64,000 bases of DNA, from contig JBEKIZ010000003.1 of assembly GCA_050011515.1 (NCBI GenBank), positions 16,805 through 80,804 on the forward strand, read 5' to 3'. This DNA comes from Terriglobia bacterium (GTDB lineage: Bacteria; Acidobacteriota; Terriglobia; UBA7540). Of this stretch, positions 26,107 through 44,404 are shown in pieces. The position numbers and the translations under genes were made by a program. The first letter of the stretch is position 1. Every line of letters starts with the position of its first letter. A model generated the notes under the pieces. It made no database searches, had not been told where the DNA came from, and saw nothing but the letters and a program-made list of their open reading frames with translations.

Positions 26107-26221
26107 GCGGGAATGTCTATGAAAACAAAGGACCGCTGTAGAAAAGTGGGCAGGAAGCGGGAATGTTTGTGAAAATAAAGGTAGTTATGCGTCAAAAGCG
26201 GGAATGTATATGAAAAAAAGC
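26107..26221 (+). promoter_or_regulatory. Three direct repeats GCGGGAATGTnTrTGAAAAnAAAG
   Basis: Copies at 26107-26131, 26157-26181 and 26198-26221, with start-to-start spacing of 50 and 41 bp. Confidence 0.6.
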
Positions 26222-26522
26222 AGGTTAATTTGTTCAGTCGAGATCAATTAGGCGCCCACCTACGACAGAAAGTCCCACCTCAGATCAGAGCCACTGTCAT
26301 CTCATCTCGGACTTAATGTCCTCGCTCCGCGCCGCACGCAATGCGTCTGCCACCCGCCTGCTGGCTTCGAGTCTCCCAACCGAGTAAGCTGTGGCCGGTG
26401 CTGGTGTCATTTGCGAGACATGGGCGTGTCGAAAGCCATCCCATCCCAAATGACACCAATACCCCGTGGCCTTCCTGGTTGCGTTCGAGTAAACATTGTG
26501 GTTTATAATGTGTGGAATCGCC

Positions 26523-28463
26523 ATGCGACTGCCCAAAGCGAAGTGGCCTCTCCTTATAGGTCTTGCCCTGTGCATCCTTCTGGCGTTCGCCGGGTTGGCC
26601 ATCTGGAAGGCGTCGCGGGCGCTCCACCGTGCCTCCGAGGAAGTGGCCGCAGCGGAAAACCTGAAATTCACAGTGTCGAGCCTGGACCATGCCGTCCCTT
26701 CCGGCGTCGAGTGGATCAGTTCCCCTGCGGTTTTTAATGACGCGGCCTTTTTCGAGGGTCGGCTGTACCTATGTGGTCCCTCGGGCCTGACCGAGTATTC
26801 CCCGGACGGGAAGCTGGTTGCCCGCTACCGAGTCGGCCTGGAGCTTCCCGCTGCGCCGCTGGTGGGCATGTCCATCGGTCGCGCCGCAGACGCCGCGGAG
26901 CCGGAACTCTACCTGGCCACTCGAGGCGGAGGTGTTCTGGCGTTCAGCGAGAAGAGTTCCCGGCAGATCCTTCCCGAGGCCAACCCGCTTCGCCAACTCA
27001 CTGCTGTGCTCCCCCTGGCCACTGGCCGACTCTTGCTGGGCACAGAAAAGAGCGGCATCTTGGTTTACGACGGCACACACCTCACACCCTTCCATCCGCA
27101 GCTTACGAAATTGCAAATCACGGCGCTGGCGGGGGACGATTCGAGCCTCTGGGCTGGCACGCTCGACGGTGGTGTCATCCATTGGCACGCCGGCCAGGCC
27201 GACCGCTTCGCGGAGGCCGAAGGGCTGCCCGACCCACGCGTTCTCTCGCTGGCCATTGACGGCGAGCGGACCTTTGTGGGCACCCCCATGGGCGTGGCGG
27301 AATTCCGGGACGGCAAGTTCACGCGCGTGCTGGCCTCCGGCTTCTTTGCCGGGGCCCTGCTGGCGGATGGCCAGACACTCGTCGTGGGCACGCTCGACGA
27401 GGGCATCTTGGAGGTCCCACTCGCCCCAAGTTCAAAGGCCGGCCCACGCCCGCGCGGCCAGGAAATCTCAGGCCGCATCATGCGTCTGCTTTCGGCCGAA
27501 ACCAACCTCTTCGCCCTGACGGATAGCGGCTTTTATAGCTTCAATCCGCGCGGTGGGACGTGGCGGCCCGTCATCGAACGCGAAGATACGTTGCTGGCGG
27601 ACCGTGACGTCTCCGCGCTCGCTTTTGATTCGTCCGGCCGCCTCTGGGTCGGTTACTTCGATCGCGGCCTCGATGTACTTTCGCCCTCCGGCGACCGGGC
27701 CACGCACATCGAAGACGAGCACGTCTTCTGCGTCAACCGCATCGTTCATGACTCGCAGCACGACACCACCGACGTGGCCACGGCCAATGGCCTGGTGGTG
27801 TTTGATGGGGCCCTCCGACAGCGTGAAGTGTTGGGGCGCAACGAGGGTTTGATTGCCGACCATGTGACCGATGTCGCGCTCACACCCGGGGGCATGACTT
27901 TGGCCACGCCCGCCGGGATCACTTTTCTTACACCTACCGGCGCGCGCAGCATCTACGCGTTTCACGGCCTGGTAAACAATCACGTCTATACCCTGGGCGC
28001 AGAGGGCACGCAATTGCTTGTGGGAACGCTCGGCGGCCTCTCGGTTCTCGACGAGGGCCAAGTGCGCATGAACTACACCACGGCAAACTCCGGGCTAAAA
28101 GCTAACTGGATTACTGCGCTGGCGCAGGTCGGCGACGAGTGGTTTGTGGGAAGTTACGGTGGCGGGATTTTTCGCCTCGACGCCACCGGGCGCTGCGAGA
28201 CGTTTCCCGACGCCACCGGGGCGTTCGTGGTGAATCCCAACGCCATGCTCGCCAGCGGCCAGCGCGTCTACGCCGGAACCCTGGAAAGAGGATTGTACGT
28301 TTACGAGCGCGCCCTGGGACGCTGGAGTGACGTCACCGCGGCCCTGCCCTCGCCCAACGTCACGGCTCTCGCGGTCCACAACGGCTACCTGTACATCGGC
28401 ACGGACAACGGCTTGATTCGCATTCTCGAGCAGAACCTGACTAGCCAAGGGCTCCGCCCTTGA
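26523..28463 (+). CDS. Membrane-anchored beta-propeller protein (two-component-regulator-propeller/Reg_prop-like repeats)
   Basis: N-terminal anchor MRLPKAKWPLLIGLALCILLAFAGLAIW, then about 12 repeats of the hhhGTxxGhxxh type (LWAGTLDGGVIHW, LVVGTLDEGILEV, LWVGYFDRGLDVL, LYIGTDNGLIRI). Confidence 0.7.
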   Translation: MRLPKAKWPLLIGLALCILLAFAGLAIWKASRALHRASEEVAAAENLKFTVSSLDHAVPSGVEWISSPAVFNDAAFFEGRLYLCGPSGLTEYSPDGKLVARYRVGLELPAAPLVGMSIGRAADAAEPELYLATRGGGVLAFSEKSSRQILPEANPLRQLTAVLPLATGRLLLGTEKSGILVYDGTHLTPFHPQLTKLQITALAGDDSSLWAGTLDGGVIHWHAGQADRFAEAEGLPDPRVLSLAIDGERTFVGTPMGVAEFRDGKFTRVLASGFFAGALLADGQTLVVGTLDEGILEVPLAPSSKAGPRPRGQEISGRIMRLLSAETNLFALTDSGFYSFNPRGGTWRPVIEREDTLLADRDVSALAFDSSGRLWVGYFDRGLDVLSPSGDRATHIEDEHVFCVNRIVHDSQHDTTDVATANGLVVFDGALRQREVLGRNEGLIADHVTDVALTPGGMTLATPAGITFLTPTGARSIYAFHGLVNNHVYTLGAEGTQLLVGTLGGLSVLDEGQVRMNYTTANSGLKANWITALAQVGDEWFVGSYGGGIFRLDATGRCETFPDATGAFVVNPNAMLASGQRVYAGTLERGLYVYERALGRWSDVTAALPSPNVTALAVHNGYLYIGTDNGLIRILEQNLTSQGLRP

Positions 28464-28506
28464 TATCCCGTGTAGGGCCGGGGCTTGCCCCGTGTGGAAA
28501 CTCCAG

Positions 28507-28588
28507 CCCTCTCCCCCTTGGGGAAGAGGGTGGCCCGCCGCCGGCGTTTTCTTCAGCCGGGGCGGGCCGGGTGAGGGGGTCGCGAGCC
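28507..28588. repeat. REP-like element, family B
   Basis: ccctctcccccttggggaagagggtggcccgccgccggcgttttcttcagccggggcgggccgggtgagggggtcgcgagcc. It is intergenic, 52 nt upstream of the VIT-vWA start. Confidence 0.85.
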
Positions 28589-28640
28589 TCCGCCCGTCCG
28601 TTTGCAGCTCCGTGTTTCGTCGCACATGACGGAGTAACCT

Positions 28641-31031
28641 ATGAAGCCCACCCACCGCTTACTGATCCTTCTCGTTCTCCTATCCACCGCCTCCTGGGGT
28701 TTTGGCGATGCCGGCGTCATCATTCCCACCGGGCAGGAACGGCCAGACCCTTCAATCCTATCGCTGGAGGAGATGCGCATAACCGTCTACATCGACAACG
28801 GCGATGCGCGCGTCTTCATCCAGCAGATCTACGGCAGCCATCAGGACGGCGTCCTGGAAGGCAATTACATTTTTGCCTTGCCCAGCTGCGCGACGATCTC
28901 CGACTTTGCCGTGTGGGACGGCGTTACGCGCATTCCCGGCGTCATCCTGGAGCGGAAGCGCGCCGAAGAGATTTATAACGCGCTGAAATGGCAGTCGATC
29001 GATCCCGGCCTATTACAGATGGGCGAGCGCGGCGCGGAGGAGGCGCGGCGCAGTCAAGTGTTCAGCGCGCACATCGTTCCCATTCCGGCCTTCGGCACGA
29101 AACGCCTCGAGATCGAGTATCACGAGACCCTTCCGGTTGAAAACCTGCAATCGTTCTTCGCCGTGCCTTTGCACCCGGATGCCTACCAGGCTCAAGCAGC
29201 GGCTCACCTCGACATCCACTTTGAGCTGCACACTCAGCACGCTATTCGGGACTTCCAGGTGATTGGCCAGACCTTTCCGCTGAAAATCACGGAACGCGGA
29301 CCCAACCTGGTGAAGGCAACGCTCGAAGCCAGCAACGCTCTGTTCAAGGAAGACTTTGCCGTGCGGTACGCATTTGACGAGGCCAAGGCCGATTCGGTCG
29401 AGGTCCTGACCTATCGCAACCCGCGCCCTCGCCAGCCCGATGCCGCGGATACGGCGCCTCCTCCGCCTAATACCAGCGAGCCGGGGTTTTTCCAGGCCTC
29501 GGCATTGTTCGCCTCTCACGGCCATGCGCCCGCCGCTGGCGACGCAACTTCAGCCGGGCCGCCACGAACTATCCTGGTACTGTTCGACACCTCGCTCTCC
29601 ATGCAATGGGAAAAGCTGGAGCGCAGCTACCTGGCCATGGAAACACTGCTCCGCTCGCTGCGGCCCGCCGACCGCTTCAATCTACTCCTCTTCAATACGG
29701 AGCTGAGCTGGTTTGAAAAGCAGCCCCTGATTGCGGACAAGCCCACGGTGGAGCGGGCTCTAGAATTTGTGCGGGCAAGCGGATTGCGCGGTGGAACCAA
29801 TCTTCAGCAGGCGCTGGATGCCGCGCTCACGCAGGCAAAAAGCTCTACGGGTGAGAGTTACATCGTCCTTCTGAGCGATGGAGGCGCCACGCGCGGCCTC
29901 ATCGGCACGGGCCGGCTGGCCGCCTGGTATTCCCGAGAGTGGAAGTCCCTGCCCGAGGCCTCACGCCCCCGAACTTACACCTTCGGCGTGGGCGATGACG
30001 CGAACCAAGTTCTTCTCCGCCTGCTCGGCCAGAACCGTGGCCTGATGAAATGGGTCCGGTCGACGGAGCCGATGGATTTCAAGCTGAATGCATTCATCGG
30101 CAAGATTGGGCGCGATCCCCTCTCGCGACTCAAACTCTCCTCTACGCCAGCGGCGAACTTCGACCTTGTTTATCCGCTCGATGACACAGTCTTCCCCGGC
30201 TCCGTTGCCGCCTGGGTCGGGCAATACAAGAAGCCGGTGCCGGCCGCACAGTTTGACGTTCAGGCCATCCGCGAAGGCGCAGCCACGAAGATGCATTCGA
30301 GCGTGCCACTCCCTGAGGAGAACCTGGAGCACCCGGACCTGCCGCGCACCTGGGCTAAGGCTCGCGTCGATGCGCTGCTGGCGAAGATCGAGCGCGAGGG
30401 TGAGGACCGCGCTTCCGTGGATGAAATCATCCGTCTGGCGCGCAAGTACAAGTTCGTCACGCCCTACACTTCGTTCTTAGCTGCGCCGCGCGCCCTGCTG
30501 CGCCCGCGCGTTATTCGGCCCGGCGATCCGGTCATTCGCGTGAAGACAGACCCCTCCATCACTTCCGTCGTGGCGCTCTTCCCCTTTGGCCTGATTAAAA
30601 GTCTGCGTTACCTGCCGGGCGAGGACATCTGGCAAACCCGCTTCCTTGCTCCCCAGGACATGACCGATGGGACATATGTGGTCCGCCTTATTCTGCGCGA
30701 CCGCGAAGGACACGTCTATCGCGAGTCGAAGACTTTCGTCATGGTGACGCAGCCGCCGGTAGTGCGGGTTCGCCTCGACAAGAAACAATTCCGGCGGGGC
30801 GAGTCCATTCCCTTGCGCGTGAGCGCTTCGGCGCGGACGCGCACCGTGCTCGCGCGGATGTACGGAGCCGAACCCGCTTATCTGACCTGGAACCAGGACG
30901 CAGGCGCAAACACCGGCAATCTGCTCGTCCCGGCGGACCTCCCCGCCGGCCCCTACACGCTGACGGTGACGGCGGAAGATATTGCCCACAACATCGGCAG
31001 CCAGGAGGTGACCATTGAAGTCCTACCGTAG
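28641..31031 (+). CDS. Secreted VIT + von Willebrand factor A domain protein with Ig-like C-terminal modules
   Basis: 796 aa. Signal peptide, VIT-like N-terminus (ITVYIDNGDARVFIQQIY...YIFALP...ISDFAVWDG), and vWA MIDAS ILVLFDTSLSM. Confidence 0.85.
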   Translation: MKPTHRLLILLVLLSTASWGFGDAGVIIPTGQERPDPSILSLEEMRITVYIDNGDARVFIQQIYGSHQDGVLEGNYIFALPSCATISDFAVWDGVTRIPGVILERKRAEEIYNALKWQSIDPGLLQMGERGAEEARRSQVFSAHIVPIPAFGTKRLEIEYHETLPVENLQSFFAVPLHPDAYQAQAAAHLDIHFELHTQHAIRDFQVIGQTFPLKITERGPNLVKATLEASNALFKEDFAVRYAFDEAKADSVEVLTYRNPRPRQPDAADTAPPPPNTSEPGFFQASALFASHGHAPAAGDATSAGPPRTILVLFDTSLSMQWEKLERSYLAMETLLRSLRPADRFNLLLFNTELSWFEKQPLIADKPTVERALEFVRASGLRGGTNLQQALDAALTQAKSSTGESYIVLLSDGGATRGLIGTGRLAAWYSREWKSLPEASRPRTYTFGVGDDANQVLLRLLGQNRGLMKWVRSTEPMDFKLNAFIGKIGRDPLSRLKLSSTPAANFDLVYPLDDTVFPGSVAAWVGQYKKPVPAAQFDVQAIREGAATKMHSSVPLPEENLEHPDLPRTWAKARVDALLAKIEREGEDRASVDEIIRLARKYKFVTPYTSFLAAPRALLRPRVIRPGDPVIRVKTDPSITSVVALFPFGLIKSLRYLPGEDIWQTRFLAPQDMTDGTYVVRLILRDREGHVYRESKTFVMVTQPPVVRVRLDKKQFRRGESIPLRVSASARTRTVLARMYGAEPAYLTWNQDAGANTGNLLVPADLPAGPYTLTVTAEDIAHNIGSQEVTIEVLP

Positions 31032-34000
31032 CCTCCGTTCACGAATTCTGATGGCCCTCCCGGTCGTCGGCCTATTCATCGCCGGCCTAACGGCGCGTGG
31101 CAACCTCGTTGAATGGTTACAGAACCTCGAAGGGAGCGGCCGTTTTGAGGCGGTCTTCTTCCGCACTGTTTCACTGCTTGGCGGTCCCGTGATGGTTCGC
31201 CGCCTGCCGGCCGAGGCGCGCAACGCCTTGAACGACCTGGTCTCGAAATCCCCCAACGACGCCGAACTCTACCGCATGCGCGCTCGCGCCGACGAGGCGC
31301 AATTGGATTTCACTGCCGCGGAGGCGGACTGGCAAAGGTATGCCCAACTCGCCCCCGATAAGGTCGATGGCCAACTCCAGCTTGCCGACTTCTACCACCG
31401 GCGCCTGCGCCCGCTGGACGAGATCAAGGCGCTGGCCGCCGCGGCGCAGGGGCCTTCTTCGCCCGCGGATAAACTGCTGGCTTCCAATCAGCAGCGGGCC
31501 TGGCAAACGTTCGAGCGCATCTTCCAGGTGATCCGCGTGCAAGCTTTGCCCGACACGCTTTCCATCGAGCAATACAACGCCTGGCTGGCGCGCTATCCGA
31601 AGAACGCGGCAACCTATTCCCGCTTCTTTGATTTCCTTATCGCAGAGAAGAAATTCTCAGAGGCGGAGCGGCTCATTAGCCGGTACGAGAAGGGGTTTCC
31701 GCGAGACAAGGTGTTTCCCATCGAAGCCCGCGCCACCCTGGCCTACAAGCGCGGCTCCACGGATGAGGCGCTGGCCCTCTACGACCGCAGTTTTCAGCCG
31801 CTCTGGCCGCCCGAGCTCGTCCAGGACTATTTCAATCTGCTCAAGGAAACCCACCGCTTGCGCGAATTCCTCAGTCGCGCCCGCGCTGCCGCCACAGCCG
31901 AGCCGAGCGACGTGACCGCCGCCGCGCGCTTGTTCTATTACTACCATCAACAGGGCAATCTCGGCGAGGCACAGCGCGCACTGGTCGAGTATCGGCGGCG
32001 CATGGAGAAGACGAACGCTCCCTGGAAAGGTGACCAACTCTGGACGCTCTCCCGCCTCTTCGATGACATCCACGCGTATAACGACGCGGCGCGCGGCTAT
32101 TACGCCCTCTACAGCCTGCCGGGCGTGGAGCCGGCGCTTCAGGAGAAAGCTCTGGCCGGAATCGCGAATCTTCTCTTGGCCGCCCCCGAACAGCCAATCG
32201 GCTTCGGCAGCAACTCAATTTCTTTCCTCCGCGACATCGGCGCCATGGATCCCTACCCAGGCTTCGTGAATGGGATCGTCTCCCTGCTGCTCAACTCCCA
32301 GTCGCCCGCCTTTCAATACTCTCAGGCGGAGGGGACCGCCGTCGCATATTTCCATCGCGCGCGGGCCGCGGACTTGATCGCGCTGTTCGATGAGCGCTTC
32401 CCGAAGTCGGGGGAGCGCAGCGAACTCCACGCCAGGCTGCTGGATGTTTATGCTGTCTATGCGGTCGACGACGCCATCCTGCGCGGGGGCCGCCGGTTCC
32501 TTGATTCCTTCCCCAAGGCGCCCCAGCGCGTCCATGTGGCCATGTTGATGGCCGATTGTTTTGCCCGCAAAAACAGGGTGAAGGAGGAACTCGCGCTCTA
32601 CGACCAGCTTCTCAACGAGCTGGCCGCGCGCGCCGATCACGTCCCGCTGGGCGAGGGCGCCCGATCGGATGTTTCAGTGGCGCAACCGCCTTGGCGCCAG
32701 AGGGAACTCGAAAACGAACAGGCTGACACTGATGAACAATCCCCCTCCCCGAGCCAGTCTCCTGTCGCGGGTCGCAGCCTGGAAAGATTGGCTCGCCAGC
32801 GCATGCGCCGCCGGCTCGATGCCAGCAGGGGTCAGACGACACAGGGGGGAGCGGGTCAGGCACGTTCTGCGGAGTACTCTCAGGTGCTCGAACGGTACAT
32901 TTCGCGTCTGGTCACCCTCGAGAGACCGCTTGAGGTACTTGATCTCTTCCGGCGCGAGATGGATCACAATCCCAACGATCCCGGCCTCTACGAGCGGCTG
33001 GCCACTTTCCTCGCGCAGAACCGCATGGACGAGCGCATTGAGGCCGTTTACAAAAAGGCCATCCAGCAGTTTCCTGAGCGCTCCTGGTACCAAAAGCTGG
33101 CCCGCTGGTATTTGCGCCGAAAGCAGAACCAGCAATTCGAAGAACTGACCCGACAGGTGATCCAGACCTTTTCCGGCACGGAGCTTGAGGAATACTTCCG
33201 GTCGGTTAGGTGGAGCGAACCGGTCATGCCCCAGATGTATGTGCAGTTGAACCTTTATGCCCGCCAGCGGTTTCCTCACAATCTCACGTTCGTGCGGAAC
33301 CTGCTGGAAGCCTTCCGCTCCAAGCCGACCAACAACCCCCAGGCTTGGGAAGCCCTCATCCGGCAAAACTGGTTTTATGACGACAACCTGCGCTCCGAGT
33401 ACTTTGCTTATTTGTCCAGCAAAGGCCGCCTCGATTCCGAGCTTCAGGCGGTGCGCGCCGCGAATCCCCAGGCCGGTGGGGGAAAATGGAACGAGCTTAC
33501 TCAGGCCAATCCCGCCGCCGCACAGTTCATCGCCGAAGCGGAGCTGTGGCGCTCGCACTTTGAAGACGCCGCACCCGTGATCAAGGCACTCGCGGAGGTC
33601 TATCCAGCGGACCAGGAGATGGGCCGGCGCGCCTCCTCTGTCTTCCGGTCGCTTGCGCCCTTCAATCCTCAATACACGGAGGTAGCTGCGGGTATCGAAG
33701 ACGCGCTGTCGAAGTCCAGTCCCGGGGACCGCGAAATTCTCATCCGCATCGGCGACATCTACGCCGACCGCGAGATGTTCGCCAAAGCACGTCCGTATTG
33801 GAACCGCGTGCCGGAACTCGAGCCCGGCAACCCCGATGCTTTCCTGGAATCAGCGGCGGTCTTCTGGGACTACTTCCTGTTCGGCGACACGTTGCGAGTG
33901 ATCAATGACGCGCGCAAGAAATTCTCGAATCCCGCCCTGTTCGCCTACGAGGCGGGAGCCGTTTACGAAGGCCGGCGGGACTTTCCCCGGGCGGTCGATG

Positions 34001-37000
34001 AATACCTGAAGGGTGGGCTGGCTTCCGCGGAGGACTCCGCCGCTCGCAACCGCCTGTTGCGACTGGTCAAGCGTTCGAGCTTGCGCGGGGCCATCGACCA
34101 GGCGACTCAGAAGGCCGCGAGCCGCGCCAACCCGGATTGGAATGCTGTCTCCCTGCGCATTGCCGTGCTGGAGGCGCTCAACCGCCGCGCCGATCTCGAC
34201 AGCTTTCTCACCCATCTGGCGCAGGACACTTCTTCGCTGGAACTTCTTGCACAAATCCAGCCGCTGGCGGACCGCTACGGCTTCGACAACGTTCGCATCC
34301 TCACCCTCGAGCGGCAGATCGCGTTCATGACCGACCCGGTGGAGAAGCTGCAGCTCCGCCTGCAACTGGCTCGCTTCTATGAGTCGAAAAATCAGATGGA
34401 GCAAGCTCGCACGCTGATGGAGAGCCTCTATAGCGAGAACCCGCTGCTCCTCGGCGTGGTGCGTTCCACCGTCGATTTCTACTGGCGTAACAAGATGTGG
34501 GACCCCGCCATCGACACTCTGCTGAAGGCGGCCAAGTCCGCCTACCCCGCCCTCGGCGAGCAGTTCACCTTCGAGGCGGCGCGCAAGGCGACCGAAGCCA
34601 AGGAATACGCGCGCGCCCGCGAATTACTCACGCCGCTGCTCCAGAATCAGCCCTACAACGCCGAATACCTGGCGGCGGTGGCGGACACCTACGCTCGCGA
34701 AGGCGACGACAAATCTCTGCGCGGCTTTTACCTTGCCAGGATCCACGACTTCAGCGACTCCAATCTGCCTGCCGATGAGAAGACGACTCGCATCGCAGCA
34801 CTTCGCCGCGGCCTCATTCCGGCGCTCACACGACTGAAAGATTCGGCCGGGGCGGTCGACCAGTACATCGAAATCCTCAACAAGTATGCGGAGGACGAAG
34901 GGCTGGCCCAGGAGGCCGCAGCCTTCGCCGACCGTAACGGCCGGCGCAAGCAACTGCTCGACTACTACACCAAGGCCACTGCCGATTCGCCCAAGGACTT
35001 CCGCTGGCCCATGGTGCTGGCACGAATCGAGACTTATTTCGAGGACTATTCCGGGGCAATCGCCTCGTACGTGAGAGCGCGCGGCGTCCGGCCCGACCGC
35101 ACAGACTTGCTGACGGCGCAGGCTAACCTGGAAGAGCGCTTGATGCGCTTCGACGACGCGCTGAAGAGCTACTCGCGCCTCTACGAGTTGGCTTACGAGA
35201 ATCCAGCATGGATGGAGAAGGTCGCGGAGCTGCATGCGCGTCAGGGCCAAACCGATGCGGCAGTCGTGGCGCTGAAGAAGGCCTTAGTGGAAGGTCGGCC
35301 GGAAAAACCCGAGATGTACTTCGCCGCCGCGGACCGCCTTGCAGGCTGGAATATGCTCGAAAAGGCCCGGCAATTCGCGGAGCGCGGCGTAGCTCTCGCG
35401 GGCAAGGATCTGTTGATCCACCCCGCGGATGGTAATGGCACGCTCATCTACGTGACGCTCCTGACGCGCCTGCGCGATTACAGCACGGCCTACGCGCGCC
35501 TCAGAGAGGCCTCGAAGGCGGCGCGGGACGCGCAAGTCCAACCCAATCTAAATCCCTTCCTCTCCGCCATGGGCGGCGCGGTGAAGGAATATTACACGCC
35601 TGAAGAAAACAGCGCCTTCGCCAACTTCCTTCTCAAAGAGAAGGAAGGGATGGAAACGAACGATTTCATCGAGACGCTCATCCCCTTGGCGCAATACGCA
35701 GGCCTGACGGACCTCGAGGCACGGTGGAGGTACGAGGTGATGATGGCCAGCCCCGGCTCGCGCCAGGCCCAAAGCATGGAAACGCGCCTGGGTGTGTTGC
35801 AAAAGCAGCGCATGCGCTTCAACGAACTCGGAGCGCAGCTCGAAGCCTACTGGAACGTATTCCCTCAGAGGCCGGGCAAAGACTACATCCTCCAAAGGGC
35901 TGCGGACAGCTACGGTTCGGCAGGAAACGCTGCGGCGGAACTACGAGTGCTTGAGGAGGCCTTCGATGGGGAGGGATTGCTTGGTCAGCATCTCTTCCGC
36001 TACCTCGAGCTGGTGTCGAGGACTTCACCTGAGCAGCTCGTAACCATCGCGGGAGGAGCGCGCGGAAATCCAGTGCGCGACGCAGCAGCAACCTCGGCGC
36101 TCGCGACGGGAAAGGTTGATCTGGCCCTCCGGGCCGTTGCCGGGCGCGGGAGCGGCCTGCCGCCCGTTTGGACGCGTGCCTACACGGGCCTGGTGGGCCT
36201 CTATTATTCCGAGCCCTCACCCGTCGTGAACTCTGCCTATCAGCAAGCTCTCGATACGCGAACGATTGGCGACCGCGTCGCGAAGCCGGGGAACCGAGAC
36301 GAAATGCTGGCCGGCGATATTTGGTTTTATTACGGCTCGCGATACGGGGAGTATCTTTCGGCTACGCACTTGGGCAACCCCGAGGATTACCTGCCGGCCA
36401 TGCTGGAAGGGACTCCAGCGAGTTCGGATGTCTACTTTACGCTCGCCGATTATTACCGTGACGCGGGCCAGCTCGAGAACGCCCTGGAGGATTTCGCGCA
36501 CGCGTTGGAACTGAATTCCAGGCGCGCCGATGCCCACGACCGCAGGGCGCAGATCCTTTGGCAGCAGGGCAAGCAGGATAGCGCCGTCAAGGAATGGTCG
36601 TTGGCGCTCGCGGCCTTCCATGCCCAAGAAGACAACAGCAAGGTTCCGCCCACTTTTTGGACGAATCTTCGCAGCACACTCGAAAATATCGGCGAACGCA
36701 AGCTGCTCCCACAGTTGCGTGACGACGCCGACCGCGTCGTCCGGACCTACGTCCGCCGCAACGGCAGCTACCGCGCCGCTCCCATCCTACGGGGCGTGCT
36801 GGCTGCGGCGGGAGATCCCGCGCAGGGGGCGGATTGGCTAGTAGACCTTTCTCGCGCCGCCCCATCCCCCATCGCTTTCCTCTCGGAGCTTGTCTCCGCC
36901 CCGTGGTTTCCCGCAGGCCACAAGGCGCCTCTCTATCAGAAGATCCTTGACCTGGCGCAAGATCAAGTGACTAAGACCTTCGGCGCAGAGCACTCCACCG

Positions 37001-38514
37001 CGCTCGAGACCTTGCACGACTGGCAGCTTCGTTGGATCAATTTCCTGCTGGACAATCGCCGGGTTGCGGACGCACAGACCGCTTTCAACAATCTCCCGGA
37101 GGATTTCCGTGACCCGCAGCAGCCTGGAATCGCCTCCGTCATGCTTCGCCTGGCGGCCCAGTCGAACGAACTCGATCAGCTCCTCCAGCAGTTTCAACAA
37201 GCTCCCGAGAAGGCTCCTACACTCGAAGTCCTGCGTACTGCCGCGGTCATTCTGGAGGAAAAAGATCCGGCCAATGCCCGCCGGCTCCTCGAATACGTTT
37301 ACACGCGCCAAATCGATGAACACGATTTCGCTCCCGCAAATTTCCTGGGGCTTGCAGAAGTTCGACTGCAACAGGGCGATCTCGCGCAGGCCGTGGCGCT
37401 GCTGCGGCGCATGAATCGCGTGGCAGGTCAGCCTTTTGAAAACCTGGCGGCTGCCGGGGACCTGCTCGTGAAGATGGCACACCCCGCAGAAGCAACGGAG
37501 TTTTACGCCCAGCGCGTGAAGGCTGTTCCCTGGGATGACGACGCCCGCCTGAAACTCGCCCAGGCGGAGGCGGCTGCAAATACGCAACGGAACGACGCCA
37601 TCCAATTGCTCATCTCTGTGGCGTCCTCCCCGAACGCCAACTATGCGAAGCGTGCCGCGGGCGCCGAATCCCTTGTGGCCCTCAAGGCTGCTGCGCCAAG
37701 CCTGGGCAGCGCCGAGCTCGAATGGTTGATTCGAGGCGGACCAGTGGCTGGCGCTGAGTCGCCGGGCTTTTTCTATGCCCGCCTGCGAGCCGCCAGGGAA
37801 GCCGCCGATGCGGCAACCAAAATCCGCCTCCTGCTCGATGCGATCGCCCTTCGTCCCGAGGACTTCCCGCAGCGTTTCGGGGCGTCGCCGCCTGCCGCCG
37901 CCAATCCCAAGAACGTATCGCCGCGCATTCTGCTCGCTCAGGCGGCGGCTGCGGCCAACCAGAATGAGCTCGCGGTTTCAGCCATAACGCCACTGGTGGA
38001 TTGGAGCATCATGGCAAGTCCACCACCCGAATCGCCGGAGGGCGAGGCCCCTGAAGAAGAAATGGAGCAGCCCGGATATCGCAGCTACATGTGGAAATCA
38101 TTTCTTGCCGGTCAGGACTTGAGCGCCAGCCAAAAATCGGCGATTGCCGCCCAAATGGCTGGCGCCTTCCAGAAGCTCGCGCGGCTCCGCGAAGCTGCGC
38201 AACTCTGGAAGGTGGCCTCCGCGCTCCCCACGGACGATTCCCTTCGCTCACAGGCAACCCATGAACTCGAACAAGTGCAGGCCCAAATGAAGCTCGAGCA
38301 GGCCGACCGAGAACGACGGCCGGTGATCACCGAGCATCTCGAGCAGAACGGTCTGGTCAGGCCACGCCTTGTACCGCTCAAAGGAGAGGCTAGCCGTCTC
38401 CCCCTTGGGGGAGAGGGTGGCCCGCCGCCGGCGCTTTCTTCAGCCGGGGCGGGCCGGGTGAGGGGGTCGCGAGCCTGGTTCGCTGAAAGTGTAGGAGGAG
38501 GTGCAGGGCAATGA
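31015..38514 (+). CDS. Giant (2,499 aa) membrane-anchored TPR/HAT-like all-alpha repeat protein
   Basis: AGGAGG lies 7 nt upstream of TTG 31015. One N-terminal TM helix (ILMALPVVGLFIAGLTA), then helical-repeat sequence throughout with no DNA-level tandem repeats. The last ~40 codons are contributed by a family-B REP element. Confidence 0.8.
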   Translation: MKSYRSLRSRILMALPVVGLFIAGLTARGNLVEWLQNLEGSGRFEAVFFRTVSLLGGPVMVRRLPAEARNALNDLVSKSPNDAELYRMRARADEAQLDFTAAEADWQRYAQLAPDKVDGQLQLADFYHRRLRPLDEIKALAAAAQGPSSPADKLLASNQQRAWQTFERIFQVIRVQALPDTLSIEQYNAWLARYPKNAATYSRFFDFLIAEKKFSEAERLISRYEKGFPRDKVFPIEARATLAYKRGSTDEALALYDRSFQPLWPPELVQDYFNLLKETHRLREFLSRARAAATAEPSDVTAAARLFYYYHQQGNLGEAQRALVEYRRRMEKTNAPWKGDQLWTLSRLFDDIHAYNDAARGYYALYSLPGVEPALQEKALAGIANLLLAAPEQPIGFGSNSISFLRDIGAMDPYPGFVNGIVSLLLNSQSPAFQYSQAEGTAVAYFHRARAADLIALFDERFPKSGERSELHARLLDVYAVYAVDDAILRGGRRFLDSFPKAPQRVHVAMLMADCFARKNRVKEELALYDQLLNELAARADHVPLGEGARSDVSVAQPPWRQRELENEQADTDEQSPSPSQSPVAGRSLERLARQRMRRRLDASRGQTTQGGAGQARSAEYSQVLERYISRLVTLERPLEVLDLFRREMDHNPNDPGLYERLATFLAQNRMDERIEAVYKKAIQQFPERSWYQKLARWYLRRKQNQQFEELTRQVIQTFSGTELEEYFRSVRWSEPVMPQMYVQLNLYARQRFPHNLTFVRNLLEAFRSKPTNNPQAWEALIRQNWFYDDNLRSEYFAYLSSKGRLDSELQAVRAANPQAGGGKWNELTQANPAAAQFIAEAELWRSHFEDAAPVIKALAEVYPADQEMGRRASSVFRSLAPFNPQYTEVAAGIEDALSKSSPGDREILIRIGDIYADREMFAKARPYWNRVPELEPGNPDAFLESAAVFWDYFLFGDTLRVINDARKKFSNPALFAYEAGAVYEGRRDFPRAVDEYLKGGLASAEDSAARNRLLRLVKRSSLRGAIDQATQKAASRANPDWNAVSLRIAVLEALNRRADLDSFLTHLAQDTSSLELLAQIQPLADRYGFDNVRILTLERQIAFMTDPVEKLQLRLQLARFYESKNQMEQARTLMESLYSENPLLLGVVRSTVDFYWRNKMWDPAIDTLLKAAKSAYPALGEQFTFEAARKATEAKEYARARELLTPLLQNQPYNAEYLAAVADTYAREGDDKSLRGFYLARIHDFSDSNLPADEKTTRIAALRRGLIPALTRLKDSAGAVDQYIEILNKYAEDEGLAQEAAAFADRNGRRKQLLDYYTKATADSPKDFRWPMVLARIETYFEDYSGAIASYVRARGVRPDRTDLLTAQANLEERLMRFDDALKSYSRLYELAYENPAWMEKVAELHARQGQTDAAVVALKKALVEGRPEKPEMYFAAADRLAGWNMLEKARQFAERGVALAGKDLLIHPADGNGTLIYVTLLTRLRDYSTAYARLREASKAARDAQVQPNLNPFLSAMGGAVKEYYTPEENSAFANFLLKEKEGMETNDFIETLIPLAQYAGLTDLEARWRYEVMMASPGSRQAQSMETRLGVLQKQRMRFNELGAQLEAYWNVFPQRPGKDYILQRAADSYGSAGNAAAELRVLEEAFDGEGLLGQHLFRYLELVSRTSPEQLVTIAGGARGNPVRDAAATSALATGKVDLALRAVAGRGSGLPPVWTRAYTGLVGLYYSEPSPVVNSAYQQALDTRTIGDRVAKPGNRDEMLAGDIWFYYGSRYGEYLSATHLGNPEDYLPAMLEGTPASSDVYFTLADYYRDAGQLENALEDFAHALELNSRRADAHDRRAQILWQQGKQDSAVKEWSLALAAFHAQEDNSKVPPTFWTNLRSTLENIGERKLLPQLRDDADRVVRTYVRRNGSYRAAPILRGVLAAAGDPAQGADWLVDLSRAAPSPIAFLSELVSAPWFPAGHKAPLYQKILDLAQDQVTKTFGAEHSTALETLHDWQLRWINFLLDNRRVADAQTAFNNLPEDFRDPQQPGIASVMLRLAAQSNELDQLLQQFQQAPEKAPTLEVLRTAAVILEEKDPANARRLLEYVYTRQIDEHDFAPANFLGLAEVRLQQGDLAQAVALLRRMNRVAGQPFENLAAAGDLLVKMAHPAEATEFYAQRVKAVPWDDDARLKLAQAEAAANTQRNDAIQLLISVASSPNANYAKRAAGAESLVALKAAAPSLGSAELEWLIRGGPVAGAESPGFFYARLRAAREAADAATKIRLLLDAIALRPEDFPQRFGASPPAAANPKNVSPRILLAQAAAAANQNELAVSAITPLVDWSIMASPPPESPEGEAPEEEMEQPGYRSYMWKSFLAGQDLSASQKSAIAAQMAGAFQKLARLREAAQLWKVASALPTDDSLRSQATHELEQVQAQMKLEQADRERRPVITEHLEQNGLVRPRLVPLKGEASRLPLGGEGGPPPALSSAGAGRVRGSRAWFAESVGGGAGQ
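38395..38475. repeat. REP-like element, family B, embedded in the 3' end of the giant TPR ORF
   Basis: cgtctcccccttgggggagagggtggcccgccgccggcgctttcttcagccggggcgggccgggtgagggggtcgcgagcc is near-identical to 28507-28588. Confidence 0.85.
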
Positions 38515-40241
38515 GGAAACTCCCGCTTTCGATTCTCTGCTTCCTAAGTATCTCCCTCGCCATGGCGCCACCCGGCCTGGGACCCAAGTCATCTTCCTCC
38601 AGCCTCGCCGCCTTCATGCCGACGGGTTCGCTGCTCTTTGTGGAGTCGCCGGACTTCGCCCCGCTGGTCCACGACTGGGAAAACTCGAAGGGAAAACAGA
38701 AGTGGTTCGAGAGCGATAATTACCAGGTCTTCTCGCGCTCACGTCTCTTTCTGCGCCTCCAGGAAGCGCAGCGGCAATTCGCCGTCGCCGCGGGCGCCCC
38801 ACCGGACATGGCCTTGCTGGATGCGGTGGCGGGCGCACAATCGGCGCTGGCGCTCTATGACGTCGGCAACCTGGAATTCCTCTACATCACGCGGATGCCG
38901 TCAGCGCGCGCCATGCAGAATGTTCTATGGACGAACCGGGAAAAGTTCGAGCCTCGCAAGGCGGCGGGCATTCCTTATTACGTTCGGACGGAACCGGAGA
39001 AGAACCGCTTGGTGGCCTTTGCTACCGCGGGCGACTGCTTGCTGCTGGCCACCCGCGAGGACCTGATGGCCGGCGCGCTCGGGCTGCTTTCCGGCAAGTC
39101 CCAACCCGCGCTCGAGGATGAGAATTGGTATAAGAGCGCGGTTTCGGCGGCGGGGCCGGCCGGCGATCTACGCCTGGTTTTGAACCTGCCGCTGTTAGTG
39201 AAGTCGCCGCACTTCCGCAGCTACTGGATTCAACGCAACATTGCGGCACTGAAGCAATACTCAGCCGAAGTCGCGGACATCCATCGCTCGGAGACGGAAA
39301 TTCGGGAAGAGCGCGTCCTGCTCAAAGCTAACCCACCCGGAGACACAGAGCAGCGCGCCACCGCAAGCACCGCCCCCATCGCCGAACTTCTCGGCATGGT
39401 CCCGGCACAGGAAGGCATTTACCTCGCCTGGCGACCTCCCTCCGCCGACACGGTGCTTGACCTCGTGCAGCAAAAGGTCTTGATCCCCCACGCAGGGCCG
39501 GGGGTGGCTTCCCAGATCGCACCGGGCGTCACCTTGACGGAAGGCCAAACCGGCAGTGAGAGCGACCTCGAGACGCGCATTGACGTTCCCCCGCTCCAGG
39601 GAACGACGGAAGCCCCAGGCGCCGAAGCCCTCAAGAAACTTCTGAATGCGGTTCCGCTCGAGGCCGTACTGGAGTATCACTCGCTCCAAAATACCAGGCA
39701 GTCGGCCTTTATCGAACCTCACTCCGCCGTCCTCATTTGCAGCTCAGCGAACTGGGATTCGGAGGCCACGCGCAACGCCCTCCGCGCGGCGATCATGGAT
39801 CTTTGGACAACTTCACAAATCGGCGTGAGCTGGGTGGCGAGGCACGAGGGCAATGCCGACTACTATCAACTCGATGGATTGGCTCCACTCGCCGTCGCCA
39901 CCAAGGGACCGATTCTCCTGCTGGCAAGCTCCGGCGAAACGCTGAAGGCCCTGCTGGCGAACTCTCCGGGTACCGAGGTGGGTCCGAACGTGGTTTACGC
40001 CGCGGGCTTTCGCCATTCTGCCGAGCGCCACAACATCGTGAAGATGATGCGGCTGATTGAAATGCCGCTGCCGCAACAGTACGGAGGCTTGGCGGGCGAG
40101 GAGGGACGCACGCCATCCTTCTTTTCCGAGAACCTCGCGAGCCTCAGTCAGTCGCTGGAGAGCATAGAGTCAGAGTCGCTCGTGGTGGAAGACCGCGGCC
40201 CACAGTTGCACCAGACGGTCACTTATCGGTTGAAGAAATGA
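38511..40241 (+). CDS. Secreted protein of unknown function (576 aa)
   Basis: GGAGGAGG upstream and a 4-nt ATGA overlap with the TPR ORF. Signal peptide MRKLPLSILCFLSISLAMA. I recognise no catalytic motif. Confidence 0.6.
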   Translation: MRKLPLSILCFLSISLAMAPPGLGPKSSSSSLAAFMPTGSLLFVESPDFAPLVHDWENSKGKQKWFESDNYQVFSRSRLFLRLQEAQRQFAVAAGAPPDMALLDAVAGAQSALALYDVGNLEFLYITRMPSARAMQNVLWTNREKFEPRKAAGIPYYVRTEPEKNRLVAFATAGDCLLLATREDLMAGALGLLSGKSQPALEDENWYKSAVSAAGPAGDLRLVLNLPLLVKSPHFRSYWIQRNIAALKQYSAEVADIHRSETEIREERVLLKANPPGDTEQRATASTAPIAELLGMVPAQEGIYLAWRPPSADTVLDLVQQKVLIPHAGPGVASQIAPGVTLTEGQTGSESDLETRIDVPPLQGTTEAPGAEALKKLLNAVPLEAVLEYHSLQNTRQSAFIEPHSAVLICSSANWDSEATRNALRAAIMDLWTTSQIGVSWVARHEGNADYYQLDGLAPLAVATKGPILLLASSGETLKALLANSPGTEVGPNVVYAAGFRHSAERHNIVKMMRLIEMPLPQQYGGLAGEEGRTPSFFSENLASLSQSLESIESESLVVEDRGPQLHQTVTYRLKK

Positions 40242-41062
40242 GCCGTTCCCTGAACCTGGTTTTGGCTTACATGCTCGTGGCTTCCTCATTGGCCGCGGAT
40301 TCGCTCTACGACCAGTCCGTCGCCCGGCTGCTGGCAGAGCACTACCCTTCCAGCGACCTGTCGTACATCCTGATCGACGCCAACACGCACCGCCTGATTG
40401 CCTCCCGCTGGGACCAGATAGCGGAACCCGTGCCCGTCGGCTCTCTCGTGAAGCCGTTCATCGCCCTGGCCTACGGGCAGAAACACAATTTCCGCTATCC
40501 CACTTATTTTTGCCACGGCTCGGCCGACGGCTGCTGGCTTCGGCGGGGGCATGGAAAGGTGGACATCAGAACAGCTATCGCCTATTCCTGTAATGCCTAT
40601 TTCCTGAACCTAGCCTCCTCATTAAAAGCGGAGGACGTGGACTTGATGGCCCAGCGTTACGGCCTTGCCATTGGGAGAGCACCGCTTGACACAGCGGAGA
40701 TGATCGGCCTCGGTGGGGCCTGGCGCATGGAACCCCAGGAACTCCTGCACGCTTACCTTCTTCTCGCCGCCCTGCCACAACCCGCCGGCGCTGCCGAGCT
40801 ACTGGGTGGGATGGCGCTCTGCGCCAAATTCGGGACCGCGGAGGCCGTCGGCCGTAATCTCCGCGGACTCGCCGCCCTCGCCAAGACAGGCACCGCCCCC
40901 TGTGTCCACGAACCCCGAGCGCCCGGCGACGGCTATGTCGTGATGCTCTACCCGGCGGACCAGCCTCGCCTGGCGTTGCTCGTCCGCGTGCACGGCGTTC
41001 CCGGCGCCCGCGCTGCCGAAACGGGAGGCCGTATATTGAACAGCGTGGTCAACGGCCAATAG
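40238..41062 (+). CDS. Minimal penicillin-binding-protein transpeptidase-fold protein (secreted, 274 aa)
   Basis: Signal peptide plus the three PBP active-site motifs SxxK (GSLVKPF), SxN (YSCNAYF) and KTG (AKTGTA). There is no N-terminal pedestal or glycosyltransferase domain. ATGA overlap with the upstream gene. Confidence 0.75.
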   Translation: MSRSLNLVLAYMLVASSLAADSLYDQSVARLLAEHYPSSDLSYILIDANTHRLIASRWDQIAEPVPVGSLVKPFIALAYGQKHNFRYPTYFCHGSADGCWLRRGHGKVDIRTAIAYSCNAYFLNLASSLKAEDVDLMAQRYGLAIGRAPLDTAEMIGLGGAWRMEPQELLHAYLLLAALPQPAGAAELLGGMALCAKFGTAEAVGRNLRGLAALAKTGTAPCVHEPRAPGDGYVVMLYPADQPRLALLVRVHGVPGARAAETGGRILNSVVNGQ

Positions 41063-41110
41063 GAGAATCGCATCCGCACACGTTTTGCCCAATCCGCATT
41101 CGCGTTCATT

Positions 41111-42121
41111 TTGCTGGCGCCTTGCGTCTGTGCCGCCAGGGAGCTGCGGATCGGCGTCTTTGGCCTTTTCCATCCCGAGCGGTTGGTGATTTCCGCCTTG
41201 CCCGCGCAAACGGTGATTGTCACTGCTGGTACACAGCAAATCGTCGTCTCGGATGGTGGAGGAGCCTTTTTGTATCTGGAAGGGAACCAAGTACGTGTTC
41301 GATTCAATGATGAGAGCCTCGTGGCCTCTGAAGTGGACGTGGCAGATCGAATGGGAAGAGCCACAGATTTCCTAATATCAATTCCCGGCAAAATCACGCG
41401 CCGCTTTCGCGGCAAGCTCGCAGTGAAGTGTCAGATCGACGAACTGGAAGCTGTGGTGGAAATGGACCTGGAGACGGCCGTTGCCTCAGCGGTGGCCGCG
41501 GAGAGCGTGCCCGGGGCTCCTCTCGAGGCTTTGAAAGCCCAGGCGGTTGCCACGCGTTCGTATTATCTGGCTTCGCTATTGCGCCACACGCAGTTTGATT
41601 TCTGCGACACGACTCATTGCCAGTTCATTCGCGAAGCGCCTTCTCCACATTCCCTCGCTGCCCAGGCCACCGCGGCCACACACGGCCTTGTCCTCTTGTA
41701 CGAGGGCACGACCATCCCGGCCCTGTTCACCGGGAGCTGCGGTGGAAGGACCCGGACTCTCGCGGAGATTGGTCTCGCGCCGGGTCCCTACCCCTATTTC
41801 TCCGTGCCATGCAATTACTGCCTGCACCACGCCCCGCATTGGTTGGCGCGACTCGACCCCAAAGAAGCCGCAGAGCTCGCGGGCCACTCTGAAGGAAGCC
41901 GGTTGAGACTCGGACGCATCCTGGGCTGGGACGCTGTACCCGGCAACAACTACGAATTGCAACGCGAAGGTGAGGTCGTGGTGGTGGAAGGCCGCGGTAA
42001 GGGTCATGGCGTGGGCCTCTGCCAATTAGGCACGGCTTGGATGGCCAACCAGGGATTCGGCTTCCAGGGAATTCTCGCCCATTATTATCCGAACACTGTA
42101 GTGGGAACCCCGAGCAACTGA
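41111..42121 (+). CDS. SpoIID/LytB-domain lytic transglycosylase
   Basis: AVATRSYYL, FCDTTHCQF, FTGSCGGRT and GKGHGVGLCQLG. The first canonical start is TTG 41111, but the signal peptide and an AGGAG favour a start near 41072 (ATC). Confidence 0.85.
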   Translation: MLAPCVCAARELRIGVFGLFHPERLVISALPAQTVIVTAGTQQIVVSDGGGAFLYLEGNQVRVRFNDESLVASEVDVADRMGRATDFLISIPGKITRRFRGKLAVKCQIDELEAVVEMDLETAVASAVAAESVPGAPLEALKAQAVATRSYYLASLLRHTQFDFCDTTHCQFIREAPSPHSLAAQATAATHGLVLLYEGTTIPALFTGSCGGRTRTLAEIGLAPGPYPYFSVPCNYCLHHAPHWLARLDPKEAAELAGHSEGSRLRLGRILGWDAVPGNNYELQREGEVVVVEGRGKGHGVGLCQLGTAWMANQGFGFQGILAHYYPNTVVGTPSN

Positions 42122-44281: not shown

Positions 44282-44404
44282 GCCGTCCTCCGCATTTCCA
44301 CTCTTGCGAAGATCTTTCTCTGCCCCTGTCCTTCATTGTTCAACGGCAAGCTCAGCAAAAGCGAGAATCCCAAAGGGTGGTACGGATCGCATAATCCTCG
44401 GTAG

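Follow-up and report, generated by a model that had tools for sequence, protein, structure and literature searches.

A conserved Terriglobia gene cluster built around a 2,499-residue TPR protein, candidate for a periplasmic envelope assembly

A 64,000-nucleotide stretch of a Terriglobia bacterium genome (GenBank assembly GCA_050011515.1, contig JBEKIZ010000003.1, positions 16,805 to 80,804; this whole stretch is referred to below as the window) carries a 15.6-kb cluster, located at 26523-42121 on the plus strand, of six co-directional open reading frames (ORFs) whose products are all exported according to the ORF listing and their export signals. The question raised by this locus is whether the six genes constitute a single system and, if so, what that system does. 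In order, they encode a membrane-anchored beta-propeller protein (gene 1), a VIT-vWA protein (gene 2), a 2,499-amino acid (aa) protein with tetratricopeptide repeats (TPRs; gene 3, the giant), a 576-aa protein (gene 4), a minimal penicillin-binding protein (mini-PBP; gene 5) and a SpoIID-type lytic transglycosylase (gene 6). A sequence-only reading of this DNA had suggested a peptidoglycan-remodelling machine and had known of no described system with this composition. The latter statement holds, as the cluster matches no described system in its composition: no curated family, no defence model and no paper found in literature searches that covered few subscription journals describes the set. 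A known anti-phage defence system was also considered and rejected, there being no PADLOC match for any of the six proteins. The domain calls of that reading, furthermore, were upheld without exception by Pfam, NCBIfam and PDB searches.

To define how widely the cluster occurs, gene 4 was searched against one genome per GTDB species, which returned a relative in 257 species, and the best 80 of these 257 (each from a different GTDB species) were combined with three loci from contig look-ups into a gene 4-anchored set of 83 loci; a propeller-anchored set comprises 80 further loci from metagenome contigs. Gene order was found to be colinear in 83 of the 83 gene 4-anchored loci, among which protein identity drops to approximately 35-42%, and this contradicts the possibility, raised in the earlier reading, that the order might be confined to one genome. 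Upstream of the cluster no ORF family occurs in more than seven of the 50 loci with at least 2.5 kb of upstream sequence, and the downstream genes vary widely. Because all 83 loci are colinear and their flanks are unrelated, the conserved order is not due to chance. Both wall enzymes follow in 73 of the 74 loci with enough downstream sequence, the exception being L078, and the VIT-vWA gene precedes in 66 of the 67 with enough upstream sequence, L049 having no VIT-vWA match upstream. The VIT-vWA gene is likewise the next gene after the propeller in all propeller-anchored loci that extend far enough, and the giant follows it in this set except in L094 and L131. In these two loci (L094 14558-20388 and L131 14832-21500) the VIT-vWA gene is followed instead by genes for a fucosidase, a phosphoadenosine phosphosulfate (PAPS)-reductase-like protein and an SMC-like ATPase, and L094 additionally holds a 278-aa fragment of the giant, which represents either a natural disruption or a mis-assembly. 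Core genes are apart only in L094 and L131, both possibly rearranged or mis-assembled, and in L049.

The ratio of nonsynonymous to synonymous substitution rates (dN/dS), calculated for five genes with the propeller excluded, ranges from 0.15 to 0.43 over three divergence levels and from 0.15 to 0.28 at the two informative ones; genes 2-6 are under purifying selection. Clustering of the gene 4 relatives at 90% identity yields over 2,700 clusters, all unnamed or 'hypothetical', and clustering at 50% identity yields 978. Wherever record titles are informative, they name uncultured Terriglobia (Terriglobales, Bryobacterales, Acidoferrales/Acidiferrales, Korobacteraceae and Sulfotelmatobacter), and the genomes nearest to the window are metagenome-assembled genomes (MAGs) titled "SPRUCE". 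A homologue search seeded from an 'uncultured Acidobacteriaceae' locus returned metagenome and MAG proteins only, with no cultured carrier. On present evidence, among the best 150 representative-library matches listed, the cluster is restricted to Terriglobia. Carriage by Dormiibacterota or Eisenbacteria, as suggested by the labels of four loci (L054, L073, L077 and L083, SMAG bins), was rejected: their gene 4 nests among those of Terriglobia at 58-76% identity, and the labels are probably wrong.

Not all six genes are equally constant, as became apparent from a divergent clade that was sampled at eight loci and whose gene 4 is 34-39% identical to that of the window. The VIT-vWA, giant and 576-aa genes are kept in 8/8 of these loci and the propeller wherever it is visible (L086, L169 and L170), while the mini-PBP is present in two and SpoIID in five of the eight, neither being found within 10 kb in three. 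L078, which belongs to the window's own clade, is also without both enzymes, and the giant of L086 is without its first 930 residues. The invariant core therefore comprises four genes, i.e., those for the propeller, the VIT-vWA protein, the giant and the 576-aa protein, and nearly all loci of the window's clade also have the mini-PBP and SpoIID, which outside it are optional. Peptidoglycan remodelling, as previously proposed, thus remains an apt description of the common six-gene form, but not necessarily of the core function, given the patchy occurrence of the enzymes in the divergent clade. Two further features of that clade concern its surroundings: a receiver-only response regulator of 224-233 aa, with no kinase nearby, is encoded after the cluster in three loci (L086 12153-12839, L167 12125-12799 and L168 12987-13688), and at one locus the cluster adjoins MlaD, MlaE and ABC genes.

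The arrangement of the six genes is that expected of an operon. In the ORF listing they occupy 26496/26523-28463, 28641-31031, 31015-38514, 38511-40241, 40238-41062 and 41111-42121, and the widest gap inside the cluster measures 177 nt (28464-28640, between genes 1 and 2), in agreement with the earlier statement that none exceeds 180 bp. The stop codon of the VIT-vWA gene (TAG 31029-31031) lies beyond the TTG start codon of gene 3 at 31015, giving a 17-nt overlap, and the AGGAGG at 31003-31008 precedes this TTG by 6 nt; motif and overlap had been noted correctly from the letters. The two ATGA overlaps, at 38511-38514 between genes 3 and 4 (with AGGAGGAGG just upstream) and at 40238-40241 between genes 4 and 5, are exactly as had been described. 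Counted with the candidate start nearest the upstream stop, a choice which favours small gaps, the 17-nt overlap of genes 2 and 3 recurs in 28 of 40 loci, the 4-nt ATGA-type overlap of genes 3 and 4 in 50 of 57 and an overlap of genes 4 and 5 in 59 of 75, while the mini-PBP and SpoIID genes overlap or lie no more than 30 nt apart in 60 of 72. Such tight and conserved junctions are consistent with the translational coupling that the sequence-only reading considered probable. GC content is uniform over the cluster (0.61-0.63), and counts of internal terminators and promoters in the cluster did not exceed the shuffled expectation. We infer a single transcript for what would be one six-gene operon. 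Each of the six products has a signal peptide or a positive-inside anchor at its N-terminus, from which it follows that the bulk of each is predicted to lie outside the cytoplasm. This had been claimed before for the whole set, but for SpoIID it holds only once the start codon has been moved, as set out below.

The giant is the most conspicuous product of the cluster. Gene 3 (31015..38514, plus strand) encodes 2,499 aa with an N-terminal signal anchor, TPRs and a variable linker at residues 551-620. It is conserved over its full length in 59 orthologues, at 50-65% identity to the window sequence, its variable parts being confined to this one linker and the tail, and its C-terminal end carries a short, helical conserved motif, RRPVIxxxLEQxxxVRPRL. 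Recognisable TPRs are restricted to residues ~1368-1429, 1797-1865 and 2080-2184. In keeping with the earlier remark that the gene is free of DNA-level repeats, neither tandem nor dispersed direct DNA repeats were found in it. Sequence matches are to generic TPR proteins only: the best NCBIfam match is the XrtA/PEP-CTERM TPR lipoprotein PrsT, at 100 bits against a cut-off of 312, and there is a weak local match to the NlpI family, at 19 bits against a cut-off of 250. No porin or beta-barrel family was detected in the giant by a Pfam scan. With NlpI of E. coli and the LpoA TPR regulators of PBPs it has in common that a periplasmic helical-repeat protein is linked with wall enzymes, whose action it may plausibly organise; however, NlpI is a 294-aa outer-membrane lipoprotein, whereas the protein described here has 2,499 aa and an N-terminal inner-membrane anchor.

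The 576-aa product of gene 4 (38511..40241, plus strand) is an exported protein that comprises two alpha/beta modules with a weak relation to each other, has a putative TP0453-like fold and carries an acidic loop at residues 337-361. The sequence-only reading could not assign this protein, and as regards sequence families this stands: no Pfam match (25 members, E <= 1) and no NCBIfam match was obtained, and profile searches of the PDB gave nothing at a threshold of either E <= 1 or E <= 10. As regards its fold, however, there is one significant match. A first structural model, based on 25 sequences at >=48% identity, reached a predicted local distance difference test (pLDDT) score of 53, and a fold search with it returned noise. 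A second model, based on 75 sequences including the divergent clade (mean column identity 40%), reached a pLDDT of 81.4 and a predicted template modelling score (pTM) of 0.78, and a Foldseek search against the PDB then matched six chains of Treponema pallidum TP0453, with E values of 2e-5 to 2.5e-3 and a probability of 1.0, all other matches having E > 0.04. The template modelling (TM) score of this match is 0.42-0.48 on the target, with a root-mean-square deviation (rmsd) of 7-9 Å and approximately half of the protein covered. TP0453 is, like gene 4, an exported envelope protein, yet this lipoprotein comprises ~250 residues in its crystal structures and gene 4 is twice as long. TP0453 is an outer-membrane-associated lipoprotein (PMC7521688), and the titles of its primary papers refer to membrane sensing by amphipathic helices and to enhanced membrane permeability. 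The two halves of gene 4 are weakly homologous to each other (hhalign probability 57%, E = 1e-4, residues 114-191 versus 399-483), and the protein appears to be duplicated. Its most conserved stretch (A337, P338 … G348 … D352 … I357, D358) falls within GSESDLETRIDVPP (residues 337-361), an acidic loop that is modelled as disordered with a pLDDT of ~42; conservation combined with low model confidence is typical of a docking motif, for which this loop is a candidate.

Genes 1 and 2 contribute two putative binding modules. Gene 1 (26523..28463, plus strand) is predicted to consist of a membrane anchor, MRLPKAKWPLLIGLALCILLAFAGLAIW, preceded by ~10 residues and followed by a Reg_prop-type beta-propeller region of ~600 aa (Reg_prop Pfam score 38.6 bits), with no cytoplasmic domain. 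The mechanically called ORF starts at TTG 26496; ATG 26523 is favoured on account of the conserved TATAAT at 26504-26509 and of orthologue alignments, alignments to distant orthologues beginning only at about residue 22-29 of the longer form. Among solved structures, gene 1 comes closest to periplasmic sensor domains of Bacteroides hybrid two-component systems (4a2l, 3v9f and 3ott), and its Reg_prop propeller region is homologous to theirs. A Pfam scan for an output domain found no kinase, receiver or AraC family, and the protein ends with the propeller. The gene 1 product was consequently rejected as a hybrid two-component sensor, being an anchor plus propeller without kinase, receiver or DNA-binding output, and the ligand-sensing arm that had been suggested is unsupported in a signalling sense, as the propeller protein has no cytoplasmic output domain.

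Gene 2 (28641..31031, plus strand) encodes a signal peptide, a VIT domain, a vWA domain with an intact metal-ion-dependent adhesion site (MIDAS), an ITIH-like C-terminal region and immunoglobulin (Ig)-like modules. Pfam matches include PF08487 (VIT) at 50.8 bits against a cut-off of 26.5, PF13768 at 46.5 against 27 and further VWA families, and the best PDB matches are the ITIH4 and ITIH1 heavy chains, over residues 307-629 (vWA plus the following region). Across 47 orthologues the MIDAS segments LFDTSLSMQ, RGGT and LSDGGAT are at least 95% conserved, and a C-terminal stretch, YKFVTPYTSFLA-PRALLRPRVIRPGDP, is as conserved as the MIDAS itself. The product ends in …TIEVLP, with no PEP-CTERM or LPXTG motif at its C-terminus. 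With ITIH heavy chains and TIGR03788 proteins it shares the combination of VIT, vWA (MIDAS) and a conserved C-terminal region; those proteins act at the surface or in the extracellular matrix, whereas gene 2 is predicted to be periplasmic and has extra C-terminal Ig-like modules. Identity with a sortase-target VIT-vWA protein of the marine proteobacterial type (TIGR03788) was rejected: the match scores 131 bits against a cut-off of 551.65, a sorting signal is lacking and no sortase gene is found in the cluster or its flanks.

The two wall enzymes close the cluster. Both seem competent for catalysis, and a loss of their catalytic residues in many lineages has not been seen so far. Gene 5 (40238..41062, plus strand; 274 aa) encodes a signal peptide and a PBP2/MrdA-like transpeptidase domain only, carrying the motifs SxxK, SxN and KTG; the PF00905 match is partial and the best PDB relatives are MrdA/PBP2. 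An alignment of 27 orthologues, the divergent L084 included, shows no variation in S69-x-x-K72, S117-x-N119 and K216-T-G, and GSLVKPF, SCN and KTGTA are at least 95% conserved in 76 orthologues. As these three motifs are invariant, gene 5 is expected to be an active serine DD-peptidase/transpeptidase. The spacing from SxN to KTG is ~99 residues and the loops are trimmed. With the class B PBP2 (MrdA) it shares the transpeptidase domain and all three active-site motifs, but a role as elongasome PBP2 was rejected, given that gene 5 has neither anchor nor pedestal, scores 48 bits against a cut-off of 455 for TIGR03423 and is accompanied by no SEDS (shape, elongation, division and sporulation; RodA) gene in the cluster. 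Five residues around SxN and KTG, i.e., Cys92, Cys99, His105, Cys222 and His224, are invariant or nearly so, which suggests a structural metal site; the gene 5 profile matches the C. difficile PBPs 7rd0 and 7rcz, and we take the Cys/His set to resemble that of the Zn-binding PBPs of C. difficile, purely as a lead.

Gene 6 (41072..42121, plus strand) encodes a lytic transglycosylase with a SpoIID/LytB domain (PF08486, 62.7 bits against a cut-off of 23; TIGR02669, 145.9 against 83.3). In 73 orthologues, conservation of the VAAES Glu and of the CDTTHCQ motif is 95% or higher, and both can be aligned with the B. subtilis-type SpoIID 4rwr. Translated from the first canonical start codon, TTG 41111, the product begins MLAPCVCAARELRIGV and is without a signal peptide, while the orthologues have clear ones. 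Upstream of this TTG, the frame meets no stop codon before TAG 41060; its translation is RIRTRFAQSAFAFILLAPCVCAA, and AGGAG (41061-41065) is followed by ATC (41072). Since a start at TTG 41111 would remove the signal peptide, gene 6 probably starts at the non-canonical ATC 41072, which would leave a 9-nt spacer after the mini-PBP stop codon. In the close relative L006, the N-terminus of SpoIID is likewise truncated when read from its first canonical start, a GTG. Homologues of SpoIID work as lytic transglycosylases on glycan that has been denuded, and a non-sporulating diderm is among the organisms in which they do so (PMC6635528). With SpoIID of the SpoIID-SpoIIM-SpoIIP system and with the chlamydial septal SpoIID, gene 6 shares the domain, the catalytic Glu and the Cys/His motif; in contrast to the engulfment system, it is paired here with a mini-PBP and a four-gene core and has no amidase partner. 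The engulfment machine formed by these three proteins (DMP) was rejected as an identity for the cluster, with 90.3 bits against a cut-off of 234.75 for TIGR02870 and neither SpoIIM nor SpoIIP in the cluster or its flanks.

Beyond single proteins, the Bat or MoxR-vWA 'aerotolerance' operons of Bacteroides, Leptospira and Borrelia likewise combine vWA and TPR envelope proteins. Their vWA proteins have membrane spans, whereas gene 2 has a VIT domain and a signal peptide, and the present cluster adds a propeller, a TP0453-like protein and wall enzymes. A Bat/MoxR operon was rejected, as no MoxR AAA+ or DUF58 gene occurs among the six genes, the ten flanking ORFs or the related loci.

Taken together, the gene content and its conservation lead us to favour, tentatively and with a confidence that stops a little short of even, a periplasmic assembly organised on a scaffold, which would make contact with the wall or the outer-membrane layer and bring in wall-editing enzymes of its own. 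The ~2,500-aa solenoid, anchored in the inner membrane, would serve as the platform that holds the other three core proteins in the periplasm. The propeller, also anchored in the inner membrane, would be of the type that binds oligosaccharides in Bacteroides sensors; the soluble, ITIH-like VIT-vWA protein would capture a ligand via the metal ion of its MIDAS; and the soluble, duplicated alpha/beta product of gene 4, with its putative TP0453-like fold, would join this assembly. Because MIDAS sites need an acidic residue, the acidic loop of gene 4 (…SDLETRID…) is a candidate ligand of the vWA MIDAS, or it may dock in the TPR groove. The core assembly would then engage the wall or the outer-membrane layer and, in most lineages, recruit enzymes of its own, SpoIID cutting glycan strands and the pedestal-less PBP2-type serine enzyme trimming or re-linking stem peptides. 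Comparable cases would be the lytic transglycosylases that are dedicated to large envelope machines, and NlpI, which is a TPR scaffold for wall hydrolases. That the proteins form a complex, bind glycan and edit the wall in situ is inferred, as is their role in the cell.

Several observations weigh against this scaffolded assembly. Approximately 10% of the giant is recognisably TPR, the remainder being assumed helical from composition. SpoIID needs prior removal of stem peptides, and the cluster lacks an amidase gene. As to TP0453, the fold match is of moderate quality (TM 0.42-0.48, 7-9 Å), comes with no sequence similarity and is not accompanied by a conserved lipobox, the Cys in the signal region of gene 4 not being conserved among orthologues. 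The enzymes are dispensable in L078, L086, L167 and L171, and therefore the core may do something unrelated to the wall. Finally, the response regulator encoded at three divergent loci hints at a regulatory link that has no place in the scheme.

A broader version of the same idea, which we regard as possible though rather unlikely, starts from the core: its four genes would build a Terriglobia-specific periplasmic superstructure linking inner membrane, wall and outer membrane, an envelope architecture or maintenance machine without counterpart in model diderms. Its solenoid of ~2,500 residues would run along or across the periplasm, the glycan-binding propeller, the MIDAS adaptor and the membrane-sensing TP0453-like protein would act as the links, and wall-editing enzymes of its own would belong to it.

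Two further explanations of the locus are each considered improbable. In the first, the cluster would serve surface-polymer or matrix assembly or adhesion, the giant acting like PelB, BcsC, PgaA and AlgK, the periplasmic TPR scaffolds in exopolysaccharide export, the VIT-vWA-Ig protein as an adhesin, SpoIID opening the wall and the propeller handling glycan. The best NCBIfam match of the giant, PrsT (100 bits), agrees with such a role, as do the Ig-like C-terminal modules of gene 2 and the relatives of its VIT-vWA region, among which are the surface-sorted TIGR03788 proteins (131 bits) and ITIH proteins; ITIH proteins bind extracellular glycan. These matches, however, are far below their cut-offs (100 versus 312 and 131 versus 552), the cluster and its conserved flanks contain no synthase, glycosyltransferase, polymerase, flippase, porin or sorting signal, the VIT-vWA protein ends in …TIEVLP without PEP-CTERM or LPXTG, and the giant is N-terminally anchored and ends in a short helical motif rather than a barrel. 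A PelB/BcsC/PgaA-type exporter in particular was rejected, with no barrel family detected by sequence and no synthase gene found in the cluster or its flanks and with a giant that ends in RRPVIxxxLEQxxxVRPRL.

In the second of these unlikely explanations, the locus would function in outer-membrane or lipid homeostasis, with the TP0453-like protein in the outer membrane, the giant as tether or conduit and the enzymes clearing a path. TP0453 is the sole significant fold match of gene 4, the giant would, from its length, be long enough to span or line the periplasm, and one divergent locus adjoins MlaD/MlaE/ABC genes. Yet the fold match is moderate, the Mla neighbourhood was seen once, no lipid-binding family is detected by sequence, and the vWA MIDAS and the propeller are left without a role.

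Sensing of envelope stress or wall damage appears more doubtful and is regarded as quite improbable. Here, the propeller and vWA proteins would capture a muropeptide, a glycan fragment or a beta-lactam bound to the mini-PBP, and the event would be relayed to a regulator. In favour of sensing are the homology of the propeller to sensor domains, the receiver-only response regulator encoded behind the cluster in L086, L167 and L168, and the size and motif spacing of the mini-PBP (S69, S117 and K216), which are like those of penicillin-sensor or class D-like domains. Against it, none of the cluster's proteins has a cytoplasmic output domain, the anchored proteins would expose ~10 residues to the cytoplasm, and a conserved histidine kinase gene is lacking in the vicinity. 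Neither the window nor any other member of its clade has the response regulator, and a 2,499-aa scaffold is difficult to account for in a sensor. That there is no system at all, i.e., that independent envelope genes are adjacent by inheritance in one class, is scarcely credible, for although all loci belong to one class, such that shared ancestry inflates synteny counts, and the enzymes come and go, gene order and overlapping junctions persist down to 34-39% gene 4 identity while both flanks turn over, overlapping stop/start codons are conserved at three junctions, and core genes are apart in three loci only.

In acidic soils and peat, Terriglobia rank with the most abundant bacteria, and few have been cultured; to our knowledge, the class has no genetic model and its cell biology is almost unstudied. 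A marginal role is unlikely for a 15.6-kb operon kept intact across the class under purifying selection. If the cluster does encode an envelope machine, it could show how a major diderm lineage organises its periplasm, and it could provide a naturally occurring TPR platform of giant size, a transpeptidase domain that has shed both pedestal and SEDS partner, and an ITIH-like protein from bacteria whose MIDAS has an endogenous candidate ligand. The finding overturns no principle and settles no open question; it is a good candidate for unstudied cell-envelope machinery, and the operon is usable as a lineage marker for Terriglobia in metagenomes.

The region upstream of gene 1 contains candidate signals for expression of the cluster. 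Three direct repeats with the core GGGAATGTnTnTGAAAA are present on the plus strand at 26098..26222 (26109, 26159 and 26200), spaced by 50 and 41 nt and absent from the rest of the 64-kb window, and form a candidate cis-regulatory array. Repeats and spacing are kept upstream of the propeller gene in nine loci, i.e., eight close relatives and L087, a 100%-identical metagenome contig that is probably the window's own (Ga0181524_10010004). Some relatives with the array carry a different upstream gene, and its distance to the start codon ranges from ~60 to 400 nt; it is probably a regulator-binding array. Neither an Rfam family match nor a structured RNA was detected in the upstream region. The TATAAT at 26504..26509 (plus strand), a perfect match 13 nt before ATG 26523, is a candidate -10 box, which would imply a very short leader. 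It sits in a block, CTGGTTGCGTTCGAGTAAAyATTGTGGTTTATAATGTG, that is invariant among six aligned close relatives, and was missed by the promoter scan because the -35 element is weak.

An 85-nt GC-rich palindromic repeat resembling miniature inverted-repeat transposable elements (MITEs) or repetitive extragenic palindromic (REP) sequences occurs twice within the cluster, without assigned strand. Copy A (28505..28589) lies in the spacer between genes 1 and 2 and has a predicted fold of -64.3 kcal/mol (z = -3.5), and copy B (38392..38476) is an in-frame insertion in the non-conserved tail of gene 3 (…EASRLPLGGEGGPPPALSSAGAGRVRGS…); the copies are 96.5% identical, and a partial copy is found at ~17782-17846. 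The 177-nt spacer after gene 1 in the window is filled by the inserted copy A, and genes 1 and 2 overlap in all four relatives with inspectable called genes (L001, L002, L086 and L169). Copy B adds ~28 residues to the 2,499-aa protein and, in a 30-sequence C-terminal alignment, is present only in relatives of at least 90% identity (L004 and L005), being absent from L006 and other, more distant orthologues.

In the window, the cluster is flanked by a divergent DUF885 gene and a polyprenyl synthase gene. A single tRNA-Asn(GTT) gene is located 2.3 kb downstream of the cluster (44395-44469), beyond the polyprenyl synthase and CYTH genes, and is followed by a 547-aa ORF without a Pfam family (44784-46427). 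In five loci of the divergent clade (L084, L086, L168, L169 and L170), genes for a type III polyketide synthase, an acyl carrier protein and a ketoacyl synthase lie 2-4 kb downstream, followed in four of the five (not in L169) by a glycosyltransferase of family 2 (GT2). This set resembles an alkylresorcinol- or lipid-type pathway and may reflect lineage synteny rather than a functional link. Between the upstream repeats and gene 1, lastly, an element at 26397-26463 is flanked by 20-nt inverted repeats (GGTGCTGGTGTCATTTGCGA / TCCCAAATGACACCAATACC); L088 and L093 lack this element, L090 and L131 have a longer version of it, and it is a second MITE-like insertion polymorphism.

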